DNA of 18,465 bases, taken from a virus (taxonomy: Duplodnaviria > Heunggongvirae > Uroviricota > Caudoviricetes). The stretch lies in IMG/VR virus record IMGVR_UViG_2731957841_000006, positions 1-18,465 of that record; one strand, 5' to 3'. The notes below the pieces were generated by a model. The model ran no database searches, was not told the origin of the DNA, and saw only the letters and a list, made by a program, of their open reading frames with translations. Positions 11,648 to 16,173 of this stretch are shown piece by piece; the first letter of the stretch is position 1, and each line of letters opens with the position of its first letter. The translations under genes were made by a program, and so were the position numbers.

Positions 11648-11690
11648 AACCGCAGACACGACGTATGCATGACGTGCTGCGGTTTATGCT
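11648..11690 (+). terminator. Candidate terminator hairpin downstream of tfa (copy 1 of a duplicated ~40-bp sequence)
   Basis: CCGCAG(A)CACG ... CGTGCTGCGG stem followed by TTTATGCTT; a near-copy occurs at ~15811-15853. Confidence 0.45.
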
Positions 11691-11751
11691 TATCACTTAA
11701 AGACTCAAAAATTAGGTGAGTAACGGACCGGGGACATAGCTCCTTTTTTTC

Positions 11752-12477
11752 TTAATTCATCTGGTATTTTTTTCCAAGATAAAGATTTGCTATTTCAGGT
11801 GGGGCTTCTCGACCTTCAAAACCATAGCGCGAACTTTGTGTTGCCTCAAAGTCAGGATCCTCGTCCCAGTATTTCAACGAAGGGAAATTTTCACGTGTTG
11901 ATTTGAGCCATTTATCAGCAATGAAAACCCCTCGAACGATCCCCCTTACAGTAGCAAGAATGATTTCTGCTTGGCTGGCGCGAGAGACATTAATGCGCCA
12001 GCTAAATCGAACCGCATCATAAAGCTCTGAATCCTTTGCACTTCTGTTAACGGATATCATTAATGCTTTATGATGAAATGTTATGGTTTCGGGCTGATAT
12101 GTTGCTATCAACTCTTTGACATGCGCGGCGCCGAATTCATTGCTGCCAGCACCATTCATGATATTCGTTAACCCAGGGTAGGCATCAATAAGTGCTGCTT
12201 CAACTTCGTACGCCGTCTTTTCATCAGTCATTCCGTGTCGATGGATGACATGGATAACTTCAAGTCCTGCTAACCTTATTTCTCTAATTTGCTTTAGCTT
12301 GTTGCTCAGTAACTCGTCATCATCAGTCGCTGCCACTTCACCGCGCATATGAGCAAATACGCGGTTACCTTTGCCTTTCCCTACATAGAAGGTGCTTCCG
12401 TCCCTCGGATCAATCAATCGATAAACATACCAGCCAAGGTGTTCAATTACTCCAGAAGGAAACTCAGTAATATCCAT
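11752..12477 (-). CDS. GIY-YIG nuclease-family protein with an uncharacterised C-terminal domain, ~241 aa from the ATG at 12477
   Basis: N-terminal GIY-YIG signature ([30 protein letters not shown]); C-terminal ~150 aa unrecognised; divergent from the methyltransferase gene. Confidence 0.65.
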
Positions 12478-12880
12478 TTTGCAATATCTAGGAATTATTT
12501 GTGAGACGTATATTAATGAACATTGCAAGGGTTCACAACCAGTAGTATTGAGAAAACCATCGGAGAAATGAGGCTAATCCTTTGAATTCACATAGTATAA
12601 AAAAGATACTTTTCCTCATAATGTGAGCTAATTTTATGTTTCGTTTGATGATTGGACCGGTCTCGAAAACCGTAGGCACGTAGTATGCGTTAATTTATGA
12701 ACAAACTACTTGTCTGCTGTTTTTCTGTCATTAGTCGTATATAGAATGATTCTCTATGCCTAACAAAGCATCACCAGTGCTAGATTACGTTGTAGTCACT
12801 GTTTAAATATCCAGATAAAATATTTCCTTCTGGGTTGAATGAGTGATAGAGTTTCACCCATTAGACCCGTTGGAGGAATT

Positions 12881-14314
12881 ATGTCTGAATTTGAAGTGTT
12901 GGCACAGCATCTGCTGAAGGAAGCCGAGGCGGAAGAAAAGCTGCGACAGGAAAATGATAAAAAGCTTATCGAGAAAGTGCTGGAAATCTATGATCAGAAG
13001 TATGTAGCTGAATTACTGAGAAAAGTCGGAAAAAATGAGTGGAGCCGTGAAACCATTAACCGCTGGATTAATGGCAAGTGTTTACCAAAATCGTTGACTT
13101 CAGTAGAAGAGTCTCTTCTGCGTAAGATGCTACCAGAACCACCTGCAAACCATCCGGAATATGCTTTCCGCTTCATTGACTTATTTGCTGGAATTGGAGG
13201 GATACGGAAAGGTTTTGAGGCCATTGGAGGCCAGTGTGTTTTTACCAGTGAATGGAATAAAGATGCTGTGCGTACATACAAGGCCAACTGGTTTAACGAT
13301 GAACAGGTGCATAAATTCAATCTCGATATTCGGGAAGTCACGCTGAGTGATAAAACCGATGTATTGGAAACGGATGCTTATGCATATATTGATGAGCATG
13401 TGCCGGATCATGATGTGCTTCTTGCGGGGTTCCCGTGCCAGCCATTTAGCCTTGCTGGTGTTAGTAAGAAAAACTCACTTGGTCGTGCGCATGGTTTTGA
13501 ATGTGAAGCACAAGGAACACTTTTTTTTGACGTGGCACGTATTATACGAGCAAAAAAACCGGCAATTTTTGTGCTGGAAAATGTCAAAAATCTGAAGAGC
13601 CATGATAAGGGTAAAACTTTCAAAGTCATTATGGAGACCCTTGACGAGCTGGGCTACGAAGTTGCCGATGCTGCAGAAATGGGAAAAAACGATCCAAAGA
13701 TTATCGATGGGAAGCATTTTTTGCCTCAGCATCGTGAACGCATTGTTCTGGTCGGATTTAGACGAGATCTGAATATTCACAAGGGGTTTACCTTGCGTGA
13801 TATCAGTCGTTTTTATCCGGAACACCGCCCATCATTTGGTGAATTGCTGGAGCCTGTAGTCGACAGTAAATATATACTTACGCCAAAACTATGGGAGTAC
13901 CTTTATAACTACGCCAAAAAGCATGCAGCCAAGGGGAATGGTTTTGGCTTTGGGTTGGTCAATCCTGAGAATAAGGAAAGCATTGCACGCACACTTTCTG
14001 CCAGATATCACAAAGACGGATCAGAAATTCTTATTGATCGTGGTTGGGATATGGCAACGGGAGAGGCTGACTTTATGAATGAGAGTAACCAGGCTCGTCG
14101 ACCACGCAGGCTGACTCCCCGAGAGTGCGCACGCCTTATGGGGTTTGAAAAACCTGGAGGGAAACCATTCCGTATTCCGGTTTCAGATACTCAGTCATAT
14201 CGGCAGTTCGGTAACTCCGTTGTGGTGCCAGTATTTGAAGCCGTTGCCAGACTTCTGGAACCCTATATCCTCAAAGCTGTTTCTGCTGATGCTGGTAAGA
14301 CTGGGCAGCCTTGA
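12881..14314 (+). CDS. DNA (cytosine-5) methyltransferase, Dcm/M.EcoRII-like (predicted CCWGG), with N-terminal HTH-like extension
   Basis: m5C-MTase motifs: [15 protein letters not shown] (motif I), GFPCQPFS (motif IV), ENV (motif VI), QFGNSV; GGAGG upstream of the ATG at 12881; N-terminus MSEFEVLAQ resembles M.EcoRII as recalled. Confidence 0.88.
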
Positions 14315-14317
14315 GAA

Positions 14318-14346
14318 CACCTCCCGGCCTTTTAAGCCGGGAGTCA
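14318..14346. terminator. Hairpin between the convergent methyltransferase and endonuclease genes
   Basis: CTCCCGGC-CTTTTAA-GCCGGGAG, 8-bp stem. Confidence 0.4.
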
Positions 14347-14348
14347 GC

Positions 14349-15557
14349 CTATGATAGTTCAGCGTAAAGTTCTATCAGCTCAGTAATGAATGCTCCGAGC
14401 GTTATTAATTCTTCTCTAACTGCTTCTGGGTATTTTTTATGTAAAGTTGATGGTACAACGAGTCTGACACCCGCATCTTTCATTTCTCGGTATTGTGCTG
14501 AAGAAACACCTTCTTGCAGCGTAAATAAATGTACCTGATGGATTTTATCTGCTTCATTCAGTATCTGACGCCAGCGATCTTTGCAGGTGGTCTTTACTGC
14601 CAGCATACGTAAGTTTTCTACAGGAAATTCAACGTCATGATATGCCTCTGCTGAAGGAAACAGGAAATCTGGTTTTTTATTACCTTCAGTAACTGCCTGA
14701 GTGGAGAAATGTCGTAGTCCGTGCTCGATAAAAAGCTTCTCTAGGTGAAGTTCAAGTGATTTACCTGCCCTTGATTTACGTCGATTACTGACAGAGTTGG
14801 CTAATGCAATAAACTCATCTACAGAATTGAATCCTTTCTTAATAATATCAAGAACATGTAATTCCTCGACGAGTAGAAAAATATCATACTCGACACGCCG
14901 ACGGTCAATCAGTTGCTCATCTGGATCCTTGGAGTTTTTAGCATAATGGCCAGCAGCATATTGAATAATTTCGTTTCCAGAAGGAAAACGCTTCTTCCAG
15001 TCTTCAGGAATAACATATTTATGATTTACTGGAGTTTGCTGAAGAGACAATCCGCCCAAAATTTGTCCGGCAGGGCCGGAAATTAGGGTTCCAGGTATGA
15101 TTTCGCCAATAGCAGACTCGATGATATCCTCTTCATCGGGATTGACGCAGACCCATATATCTACCTCGGAACAGTCAGTGTTCTGTTCGTTTAACCTGAA
15201 AGCAAGAATTGTGAGGGCTCCTGTATTTTCAGAGTTCTGTAATGGACTTCCTCTCCCCCAGCGCGTAATTCTTTTTTCGTTTCGGGTCTTACCAAAATAA
15301 CGGTTGTTGTAATAAATTGCGCGTGCTTGGGTATCAGGGCAATCATGGGATGATACATGCGCAGTAAGGAAGACTGAAGGGTTCAGTTCGCGAGTATGAT
15401 TGATAGAAGGAAAAAGCTTTTCAACGATATTTGAGGGGATATAAAGTCCGACCTGATGGCCACCTGTTGCGCCTGTGTCGTTTGCAGAAAGGCGTTTGAT
15501 GTAGATAAAGTAATTCCCGCTTGCGATATCAAGCAGCCAGTTATGAAAAACCGACAT
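14349..15557 (-). CDS. Type IIE restriction endonuclease, EcoRII-like, ~402 aa
   Basis: Translation closely resembles EcoRII as I recall it (MSVFHNWLL..., ~404 aa) and is convergent with a Dcm-type methyltransferase, the known EcoRII R-M arrangement. Confidence 0.82.
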   Translation of the reverse strand: MSVFHNWLLDIASGNYFIYIKRLSANDTGATGGHQVGLYIPSNIVEKLFPSINHTRELNPSVFLTAHVSSHDCPDTQARAIYYNNRYFGKTRNEKRITRWGRGSPLQNSENTGALTILAFRLNEQNTDCSEVDIWVCVNPDEEDIIESAIGEIIPGTLISGPAGQILGGLSLQQTPVNHKYVIPEDWKKRFPSGNEIIQYAAGHYAKNSKDPDEQLIDRRRVEYDIFLLVEELHVLDIIKKGFNSVDEFIALANSVSNRRKSRAGKSLELHLEKLFIEHGLRHFSTQAVTEGNKKPDFLFPSAEAYHDVEFPVENLRMLAVKTTCKDRWRQILNEADKIHQVHLFTLQEGVSSAQYREMKDAGVRLVVPSTLHKKYPEAVREELITLGAFITELIELYAELS

Positions 15558-15639
15558 ATACATCCCTTTGTTAACATACAGTCAGGGTTAACATTTTTCC
15601 ATAGTTATAGATAAGCGGCTAGGAACTTAAGGGAAAAAC

Positions 15640-15664
15640 AAAAAGCCCGCATAAGCGGGCTTTT
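15640..15664. terminator. Bidirectional terminator-like hairpin upstream of the restriction gene
   Basis: AAAAAGCCCGC-ATAA-GCGGGCTTTTT: perfect 7-bp stem flanked by A-run and T-run. Confidence 0.45.
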
Positions 15665-16173
15665 GTGTCACTCGAGAGCCGCGGCTCCTTTGCGTATCTT
15701 TTTTGTCTCCTCACCGTCTGGTCGGTGTCCTGCTGAGACTGCTAATTTCCTGTTTTTGTTAGTACTGTCCTAGAACTGTCCAATCATGATTGGTGGGCTG
15801 GCGGAGTTGAAACCGCAGACACGTCGTATGTAAGAACGTGCTGCGGCTGGCTGGCCAGCTTCTGATAGTGCGAATATTGAATGATTTCTATCTGTTATAG
15901 ATTTTACCGTATTTCGGCATGAATGAAACTGAATATCCTCCCACCGATTCTCCATGACTTTACGCCACTGTCTCTAGGGCTGCTATGTGCCAGGAGCAGA
16001 CGTTACTAACATCTATCTGCATCAATCTGTGGGGAGCAGAACCGTGATATGTTAACTGCATCCAAACGGAGTCAACACCAGAAAAAATCCTCCTAGTAGG
16101 ACGGTGCACTAGTATTCATCTTGTTCTAATCTCAATCCACAGCGGTAAAAATTGCGAAGAAAAAGGGATTTAT

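Follow-up and report, generated by a model that had tools for sequence, protein, structure and literature searches.

How did a set of defence genes come to lie between copies of a short hairpin at the end of a prophage tail-fibre operon? The question is raised by an 18,465-nucleotide (nt) stretch of the Caudoviricetes record IMGVR_UViG_2731957841_000006 from IMG/VR (its positions 1 to 18,465; the whole stretch is called the window, and its coordinates are used throughout). In the window, the lambda-type tail fibre assembly gene tfa (11051-11635, plus strand; Pfam Caudo_TAP, E = 1e-44), the final gene of the rightward tail-fibre operon, is followed by a GIY-YIG nuclease gene on the minus strand, an EcoRII-type methyltransferase gene, the corresponding endonuclease gene, and an AAA_13 ATPase gene that extends past the window end. 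The original prediction had taken two repeats in this region as the flanks of a cassette of about 4.1 kb, made up of the GIY-YIG gene and the restriction-modification (R-M) pair, that arrived at the tfa terminator. The reading that we favour is a different one: the repeats belong to a family of 38-nt hairpins (HP; HP1, HP2 and HP3 are the three copies in the window), which probably serves as a shared terminator-like junction element where modules are exchanged stepwise, with no target duplication.

Hairpin copies, empty sites and a family at prophage ends

HP1 (11637-11685; covariance model, 55.4 bits) consists of an A-run at 11637-11647 and a bulged 38-nt hairpin at 11648-11685, and HP2 (15811-15848; 67.3 bits) is a complete member of the family, from the lineage found ahead of a conserved non-coding block, here termed blockA. 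Both lie on the plus strand in the same orientation, and in a global alignment 33 of 39 columns are identical (85%) with one 1-nt gap, which confirms the predicted direct repeat of about 40 bp. Those two copies are not the only ones, since a third, partial copy (HP3, 12668-12688) lies between the GIY-YIG and methyltransferase genes. A 20-nt left-arm pattern allowing up to 3 mismatches has 3 sites in the window against 0.00 expected from 200 shuffles, so the repeat is real rather than a product of chance. HP1 folds as a bulged hairpin of -20.8 kcal/mol (z = -4.1 against shuffles), and the HP2 hairpin is found inside a bigger fold of -26.2 kcal/mol. All copies of the array share one orientation, with one hairpin per module.

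To its left HP1 adjoins tfa, whose DNA is 96-97% identical to the tfa genes of lambda and ev099 as far as about 11613-11622. An empty version of this site, which the original prediction proposed to look for, does exist among the loci and genomes compared (designated by L-numbers; the complete-genome set comprises 5426 E. coli genomes). In L019 a complete tfa leads through ...GTAAGCGAAAAAGAAA into a single hairpin, and next to that stands GGCTGGTGAACTTTCGATAGTGCG..., as it does after HP2 in the window; a 271-nt query across the junction of tfa 3' end, hairpin and blockA is covered to at least 80% in 982 of the 5426 genomes, some of which (e.g. L136) hold other cargo further upstream, flanked by a duplicated tfa 3' end plus hairpin. 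The empty-site hairpin of L019 differs from HP1 by a single nucleotide, a loop base, while HP1 and HP2 are separated by 7 edits in 40; HP1 is, as judged by its sequence, the resident hairpin of this tfa type.

These comparisons bear directly on the view that a long target-site duplication, or a single 4.1-kb insertion of the GIY-YIG and R-M genes at the tfa terminator, left the two copies behind. Direct repeats do flank the cargo, a single-copy empty site is at hand, and entry of the cargo at the resident tfa hairpin is the part of the prediction that we retain. The distances just given speak against a single insertion, however, as do several further observations: the copies share only 85% identity, against 98-100% between the DNA around them and other genomes; HP1 clusters with the tfa-type hairpins, and HP2 is of another lineage; a third copy divides the interval, and the left flank of HP2 is the attachment (att) core of ssrA; PD-T4-3, the defence gene that the GIY-YIG gene represents, occurs without the R-M pair in hundreds of genomes; and there is no transposase among the open reading frames (ORFs). 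What had looked like one cassette is a PD-T4-3 module (11686-12688) that circulates alone, together with a remnant hairpin, the R-M pair and a decayed ssrA core, and entry would have taken several steps rather than one. A one-step origin is already refuted as it was stated, and we give it hardly any credence.

The hairpin itself is common. BLAST with 48 nt around HP2 matched 5378 of the 5426 complete genomes at 18122 places (median 3, maximum 10 per genome) and also 156 coliphage records, including lambda, HK97, HK106, HK75, mEp460, phiP27, Rac-SA53 and many Shiga toxin (Stx1/Stx2) phages; it is present in the Rac and Qin prophages as well. The E. coli chromosome has one fixed copy of its own, upstream of ykgJ, which probably accounts for much of this near-universal presence. 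The concern that the repeat might be a dispersed family found at unrelated loci is borne out as to its abundance, but nearly all contexts examined are the distal end of the tail-fibre or pin genes; the sampled contexts are prophage ends plus the single fixed ykgJ copy, and the number of places per genome is far from the hundreds of copies at unrelated core operons expected of repeats of the REP/BIME type. The usual site is right behind tfa or pin, with the ~60-bp blockA next, and tfa or pin ends 0-26 bp from the hairpin in about 34 of 79 loci surveyed. The HK97 hairpin has tfa on one side and the annotated sib site and att core on the other; those of phiP27 and the Stx phages are a few hundred bp short of the record's att end, and that of K-12 Qin is ~240 bp short of the end of the prophage. 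Where a prophage combines P2/Mu-like baseplates with an invertible fibre segment, the start of the hairpin coincides with the pinE stop codon. In E. coli prophages of the lambdoid, e14-like and phiP27-like kinds, the hairpin marks the far end of the tail-fibre operon. K-12 e14 has no hairpin after pinE, where mcrA follows directly.

Arrays of two copies occur in at least 11 viral contigs, and lambda itself (J02459) has two hairpins, at ~22572-22608 (14 nt past the tfa stop) and 24160-24197, which bracket the minus-strand gene ea47; the b region of lambda is thus built in the same way as the array in the window. The contents of the slot vary from locus to locus: none, PD-T4-3, PD-T4-3 with the R-M pair, a type IV methyl-directed restriction enzyme, a GGDEF protein, an acyltransferase, ea47 (which has no assigned function), and unknowns. 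Anti-phage defence genes, here PD-T4-3, the EcoRII-type pair and the type IV enzyme, are repeatedly swapped in and out beside the hairpin, and in K-12 e14 McrA occupies the same position after pin without one. The 38-nt hairpin and the ~60-bp block after it therefore provide a sequence landmark for a main accessory-gene slot of E. coli temperate phages, between the tail-fibre or pin genes and the attachment site, by which occupied and empty sites can be separated automatically. Such a landmark is practical for surveys of defence genes and may help to find new ones among the unknown cargo; it also points to recombination at a shared terminator-like repeat as a route by which defence genes would pass between unrelated prophages in one host.

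One filling of the slot has a longer repeat. L136 (NZ_OZ547136.1) carries, at 1007-2771, a class I S-adenosylmethionine (SAM)-dependent methyltransferase gene on the minus strand between a complete tfa plus hairpin and a duplicated tfa 3' fragment plus hairpin. Fillings of this type are also found in L026, L042, L068, L072 and L097; the tfa fragment starts from about residue 132, and the direct repeat is ~226 bp, not 38.

Modules of the array and their joints

The GIY-YIG gene (11752-12477, minus strand) is a PD-T4-3 defence gene encoding a LEM-3-like nuclease (PADLOC PD-T4-3, E = 4.7e-128; Pfam PF22945). Its module, 11647-12688, also occurs by itself between two hairpins, with at least three kinds of left neighbour: tfa in 206 genomes, pinE in most of roughly 400 other records (their match starts exactly at query position 58, i.e. 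11647), and a flank of the ssrA-core type in L067 and L027. Matches to 11647-12688 in L035, L059, L067 and L027 run on as a normal hairpin plus blockA. In the window the gene is frameshifted, with a run of seven T (11767-11773) where four relatives (L001, L002, L003 and L035) have eight; this swaps the last ~20 residues for YQMN*, the stop of the relatives being equivalent to 11704. The shorter run may be a genuine mutation that inactivates or truncates the protein, or else a sequencing error in the homopolymer.

On the right side of the module, HP3 (12668-12688) retains the left arm and half the loop of a family hairpin that is complete in relatives, where it travels with PD-T4-3. Past position 12688 in the loop, where the homology stops, a dinI-like gene has left a remnant of its 3' end on the minus strand (12689-12725; 24 of 29 nt identical to a dinI-like 3' end, stop codon included). 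That element normally lies just right of blockA, and the same element stands after blockA in L055 and L086. HP3 is therefore best described, from its sequence, as a hairpin-blockA unit that is shorter by about 85 bp, having lost the right arm and blockA. In the enterotoxigenic E. coli (ETEC) strain H10407 homology to the window stops at ~12675. By chance the dinI-like remnant pairs with the left arm of HP3, which produces a hairpin with a long loop and, behind it on the plus strand, TTTTT, upstream of the methyltransferase gene; we considered HP3 as a long-loop member of the family and rejected this, since the covariance model does not find it and its right half is the dinI-like remnant, making it a chimera.

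Next come the genes of the R-M pair, a C5 cytosine methyltransferase (12839-14314, plus strand; Pfam DNA_methylase, 4.7e-78, and DNA_meth_N; PADLOC MTase_II, 4e-230), the start of which as annotated in relatives (L001) is at ~12881, and a restriction endonuclease (14349-15563, minus strand; Pfam EcoRII-N and EcoRII-C; PADLOC REase_II, 3e-234). Between the pair and HP2, joined to the 5' edge of the latter, lies a decayed 3' end of ssrA, the gene of transfer-messenger RNA (tmRNA), on the minus strand (15789-15811). It covers the last ~23 nt of ssrA, which form the att core of ssrA-integrating lambdoid phages. Compared with ssrA it lacks two single nucleotides in 23-28 nt, and no integrase lies nearby; it is therefore not a working att site in the window, and we read it as the remnant of one. 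The flank of the R-M pair, ...CCAATCATGAT, leads into this decayed copy in the window; in L002, ...CCAATCATGAT abuts the true ssrA 3' end. In strain 31B19CPO012 this R-M flank abuts true ssrA, and the lambdoid prophage is closed by a second 30-bp ssrA repeat (L134). Given these arrangements, the block from tfa to the ssrA core would come from an ssrA-integrating lambdoid phage. The core now lies stranded inside a prophage at icd.

The core and HP2 meet through the microhomology TGAA(A/C)CCGC (TGAA|ACCGC in the window, TGAA|CCCGC in ssrA), and viral contigs in which a perfect 23-nt ssrA core is fused to a hairpin appear to show a younger state of the same joint. HP2, blockA and its continuation, blockB, carry rare variants (CCAGCTTCTGATAGTGCGAATATT) that are shared with pin-type prophages such as LR-03. 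Neither ssrA repeat of the ssrA prophage (L002/L134) has a hairpin beside it; for this reason we rejected HP2 as part of an ssrA-type attP, and the fusion of core and HP2 would be secondary.

The AAA_13 ATPase gene (16174-18465; PADLOC candidate PDC-S06), earlier called RloC-like and correctly placed outside the repeats, is joined to blockB at a separate breakpoint, a 27-bp overlap at 15982-16008. The AAA_13 block is 100% identical in seven genomes, where it lies inside Qin-like prophages between a DUF977 gene and hokD, so this defence candidate occupies two prophage slots. The full arrangement of the window is absent from all genomes of the collection; its R-M side and its AAA_13 side match different genomes.

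One and the same site is thus seen empty, singly occupied and doubly occupied, with direct hairpin repeats at successive module borders, and the breaks in homology (11647, about 12675, 12688 and 15807-15816) fall at the 5' edge, the loop or the 3' edge of a hairpin. The same ~40-100 bp are shared by otherwise mosaic phages that meet in one host, and the hairpin region would therefore serve them as a portable patch of homology, as well as being a structurally fragile spot. Starting from a resident site of tfa, hairpin and blockA, the gain of a PD-T4-3 module with its own hairpin on the right would have given tfa-HP1-PD-T4-3-HP-blockA-dinI'. In an ssrA-integrating lambdoid phage, the EcoRII-type pair would then have come to lie between this point and the att core, and a deletion of ~85 bp would have taken the right arm of the hairpin and blockA, leaving HP3. 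The ssrA core would next have been joined, through 9 nt of microhomology, to the 5' edge of another unit of hairpin, blockA and blockB, namely HP2, and the AAA_13 gene would have been added last, at 15982-16008. Exchange would use the 38-100 bp of shared sequence as homology, lengths with which phage recombination systems of the Red/RecET type work, and the core-HP2 and HP3-dinI' joints would be microhomology events. Since stacked modules each carry a hairpin, or land beside one, the direct repeats would be a by-product of the stacking, and they would make each module deletable again.

A probable terminator role and the conserved block

The hairpin is polar, and its polarity is not the one first supposed. 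HP1 lies 12 nt past the tfa stop on the plus strand, where only TTTATGCTTATC follows the hairpin, a weak tail (UUUAUGCUU); on the minus strand the hairpin is followed by a strong T-run, TTTTTCTTTTTTGC. The minus strand thus has the canonical layout of an intrinsic terminator for the GIY-YIG gene, a hairpin and then UUUUUCUUUUUUGC, situated 66 nt past the frameshifted PD-T4-3 stop and 20 nt past the stop of the relatives. The minus-strand tract reads UUUUUCUUUUUU at HP1 and UUUCAUUUAU behind pin, and in lambda the two hairpins follow ea31 and ea47, both leftward genes. With its good U-tract on the minus strand, HP1 is predicted to terminate leftward PD-T4-3 transcripts better than those of tfa, and the functional U-tract that the original prediction had assigned to the tfa side of the first copy belongs to the opposite strand. 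Nor would the second copy have lost such a tract, as had been thought, since no hairpin followed by blockA has one on the plus strand, which continues GGCTGG...; on its minus strand HP2 is followed by just UUUCAAC. The 10 nt upstream of the hairpin hold a mean of 4.9 A, with 5 or more in 43 of the 80 hairpins listed and 9 of 10 at HP1. The most economical reading is an intrinsic-terminator-type hairpin between convergent units, canonical for leftward transcripts, which may act on the plus strand too.

For conservation we drew on a sample of at least 120 loci from IMG/VR, anchored on a motif downstream of HP2 (GATAGTGCGNNTATTGAATGATTT); the profile uses 97 distinct sequences among the loci listed, and the analysis of covariation 47 distinct hairpins. 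A hairpin stands directly upstream of the blockA motif in all loci listed bar one or two. Conservation is ~0.3-0.5 left of 15810, at least 0.84 from 15810 through the 38-nt hairpin, and ~0.9-1.0 up to ~15908, the end of blockA, beyond which it drops to ~0.6. The step coincides exactly with the 5' edge of the hairpin despite many different left neighbours, among them at least two types of tfa, pinE, phiP27 L57, ykgJ, the ssrA core, and the upstream region of PD-T4-3. The stem is paired in 89% of cells across the 47 hairpins (22-51% in controls with slid partners), and 7 of its 13 pairs show compensatory changes; double-change cells number 27 against 9.9 +/- 2.4 in shuffled data, and none of 500 shuffles reaches 27. 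This is good, but not decisive, support for a stem kept by compensatory changes. RNAalifold gives just 6 pairs on the hairpin alignment and nothing useful on the minus-strand alignment of blockA and hairpin.

BlockA (15849-15908), ~60 bp of non-coding sequence with the core GATAGTGCGA.TATTGAATGATTT, follows the hairpin in lambda (~24198-24258), HK97 (~20987-21047), phiP27, Stx phages and pin-type prophages, at L001 26434-26490, and upstream of ykgJ. It is 90-100% conserved among otherwise mosaic phages, more so than the adjoining hairpin, and may have a function of its own, e.g. as a small RNA (sRNA) or a binding site. Covariation is uninformative for it because blockA is too invariant. A conserved TAAAAT on its minus strand is a mere resemblance to promoter consensus. 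The less conserved blockB (15909-16008) is common to lambda (~24259-24350) and pin-type prophages and ends at the joint with the AAA_13 block. Small ORFs through blockA and the hairpin, including one of 61 codons' worth of residues (61 aa, 15770-15955), were considered as coding and rejected, since neither length nor frame is kept and 1-nt indels in the hairpin break them.

A leftward dinI-like gene ends ~10 nt right of blockA in 44 of the 104 loci listed, and there blockA and the hairpin form its 3' untranslated region (3'UTR) and predicted terminator. Hairpin and blockA might make up a functional unit of ~100 nt, acting either, by analogy with DinR of Klebsiella, through an sRNA from the dinI-like 3'UTR in SOS-induced prophage transcripts, or as an active docking site that captures and releases defence cassettes. 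DinR, an sRNA from the 3'UTR of chromosomal dinI in Klebsiella, is described as Klebsiella-specific in sequence (PMC10907235); the prophage unit corresponds in position to the part of the mRNA that yields DinR. The unit persists even where dinI is replaced; nearly all lambdoid and e14-like prophages carry it at their end, and there is the fixed chromosomal copy ahead of ykgJ. Such a role is conceivable, and we consider it distinctly improbable.

Several points weigh against the hairpin as a terminator-like site of exchange. A clear minus-strand U-tract is present in only about half of the family, and HP2 has UUU only. The loop (GTATGCAAGA) and blockA are kept beyond the need of a plain terminator, which hints at further function. 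A simple terminator scan of the window called neither HP1 nor HP2, a result that is uninformative rather than negative, because the scan misses a bulged stem with a long loop (8 nt or more). The sample behind the conservation and covariation figures is anchored on blockA and so biased to one class of related sequences, for which the shuffle test can overstate support. Both termination and recombination at the hairpin are things that we infer, and the order of events given above is pieced together from the arrangements of today rather than read from a dated phylogeny. Finally, the breakpoints do not fall at one fixed position, which fits joining by short homology or illegitimate recombination, and also random joining followed by selection.

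That last alternative, in which the hairpins are the modules' own terminators of common descent, joints are random and illegitimate, selection keeps intact genes and terminators, and the hairpin has no mechanistic part, fits the varying breakpoints. Two of the joints, ssrA core to hairpin and hairpin loop to dinI', are plain microhomology or deletion events, and other mosaic joints in the window, e.g. that at 15982-16008, lie away from any hairpin. It fits less well with PD-T4-3, which occurs in three or more left contexts, each time with a complete hairpin of the resident type on its left and its own hairpin on its right, a combination that should be rare by chance, and with a conservation step located exactly at the hairpin edge in dozens of independent contexts. 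We therefore hold random joining, although the strongest of the rival readings, to be unlikely, and stepwise exchange at the hairpin remains the reading that we prefer.

Related systems and other features of the window

The closest described system is that of the PeSL (promoter-early stem-loop) cassettes of the T4-type phages RB49 and phi1, in which copies of a conserved regulatory motif of ~100 bp with a terminator stem-loop surround non-essential genes (Arbiol et al. 2010, PMC2839356). Where one phage has a gene between two motifs, a relative has just one motif, and insertion and deletion by homologous recombination have been proposed; PeSLs carry a strong early promoter, are present in many copies per genome in hyperplastic regions of virulent phages, and have been shown to give rise to mini-circles (PMC2839356). 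Our hairpin similarly flanks variable non-essential genes (three copies in the window, two in lambda), has empty sites, and bounds the same cargo, PD-T4-3, in different contexts. It differs in number and placing: a temperate phage has 1-3 copies of hairpin and blockA, confined to one defined position where the tail-fibre operon ends. The family thus appears to be the lambdoid counterpart of a repeat-mediated shuffling of modules, and not categorically new.

Within the lambdoid phages, the hairpin also fits the concepts of the moron and of the linker or boundary sequence, reportedly set out by Juhala et al. in 2000 and Clark et al. in 2001 (in part via PMC4104026). Morons are accessory genes between core modules with their own promoter and factor-independent terminator, and boundary sequences are short and conserved. 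In contrast to both, the same hairpin recurs at successive boundaries across unrelated backbones, giving direct repeats and recognisable empty sites. The lambda sib/tI hairpin is likewise a leftward terminator, in the b region near att, and in HK97 sib is ~55 bp from the family hairpin; sequence and position differ, however, the family hairpin being a further one beyond sib in HK97 and 3.3-5 kb from sib in lambda. In the literature searched, the coverage of which is incomplete, there was no description of this hairpin family or of a lambda b-region terminator.

One member of the family does appear in an RNA model. CssrB of Shigella (Rfam RF02799) is a transcript of ~180 nt on northern blots, and its 3' end was placed by predicting a terminator (PMC3071730). 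The model closes with a hairpin, ...AAACCGcaGCaCGuCuuAAGCaaGAaCGuGCugCG, that belongs to our family, on the strand equivalent to the plus strand of the window. The match is to the hairpin only and appears at relaxed thresholds, with 22-29 bits where the gathering score is 76; the window lacks the ~135-nt body and so does not contain CssrB.

The array resembles an integron in having one imperfect palindrome per cassette, in a single orientation, among accessory genes. Such an arrangement would be expected if the hairpin were a structure-specific recombination site, attC-like or similar to the hairpins of IS200/IS605, that a recombinase such as Pin or the phage integrase reads as folded DNA. In many prophages, moreover, the hairpin takes over from the pin recombinase gene right at its stop codon, and both its loop and its stem are kept beyond what a terminator needs. 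On the other hand, lambda, HK97 and the window carry hairpins without an adjoining pin, and the gix sites of Pin-family recombinases are of 26 bp with a 2-bp core, not 38-bp hairpins, which counts against Pin acting here. The ORFs between the copies include neither an integron integrase nor a transposase; the window has a single integrase, of phage type, beside icd, and lambda and HK97 have their hairpins without IntI. The array also differs from an integron in having no attI, Pc, or R''/R' core (HP1 and HP2, when read by eye, lack the motifs RYYYAAC ... GTTRRRY), and in its joints, as the crossover positions differ from one another. A structure-specific site is accordingly a very remote prospect in our view.

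The rest of the window precedes the array and opens with icd (1-1254), a tRNA-Thr gene, a phage integrase gene (1459-2622, minus strand) and a short e14-like immunity region, and reaches tfa by way of a lambda-type side tail fibre gene (8043-11051). The backbone at 5435-8293 is very short: ORFs that match e14 ymfK (224 aa), ymfL (187 aa) and ymfM (112 aa) in size abut the tail fibre gene of 1002 aa almost directly, and an ORF of 317 aa overlaps its start. Such a layout points to a large internal deletion or to a fusion that brought the immunity region up to stf. Within the tail fibre gene, 8441-9590 holds several families of imperfect direct repeats of 25-107 nt, which are Pfam Phage_fiber_2 repeats at the protein level and bear no relation to the hairpin.

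The tRNA-Thr gene (anticodon CGU) occupies 1369-1444, between icd and the prophage integrase gene; the corresponding position in K-12 e14 carries the annotated small RNA C0293 (72 nt). At gathering thresholds, Rfam returns only a tRNA and IS009 in the window. The IS009 match (RF02111) is full-length, with 226 bits, and lies at 11394-11592, inside the tfa coding sequence; this putative sRNA family therefore overlaps a conserved coding region of prophage tfa.

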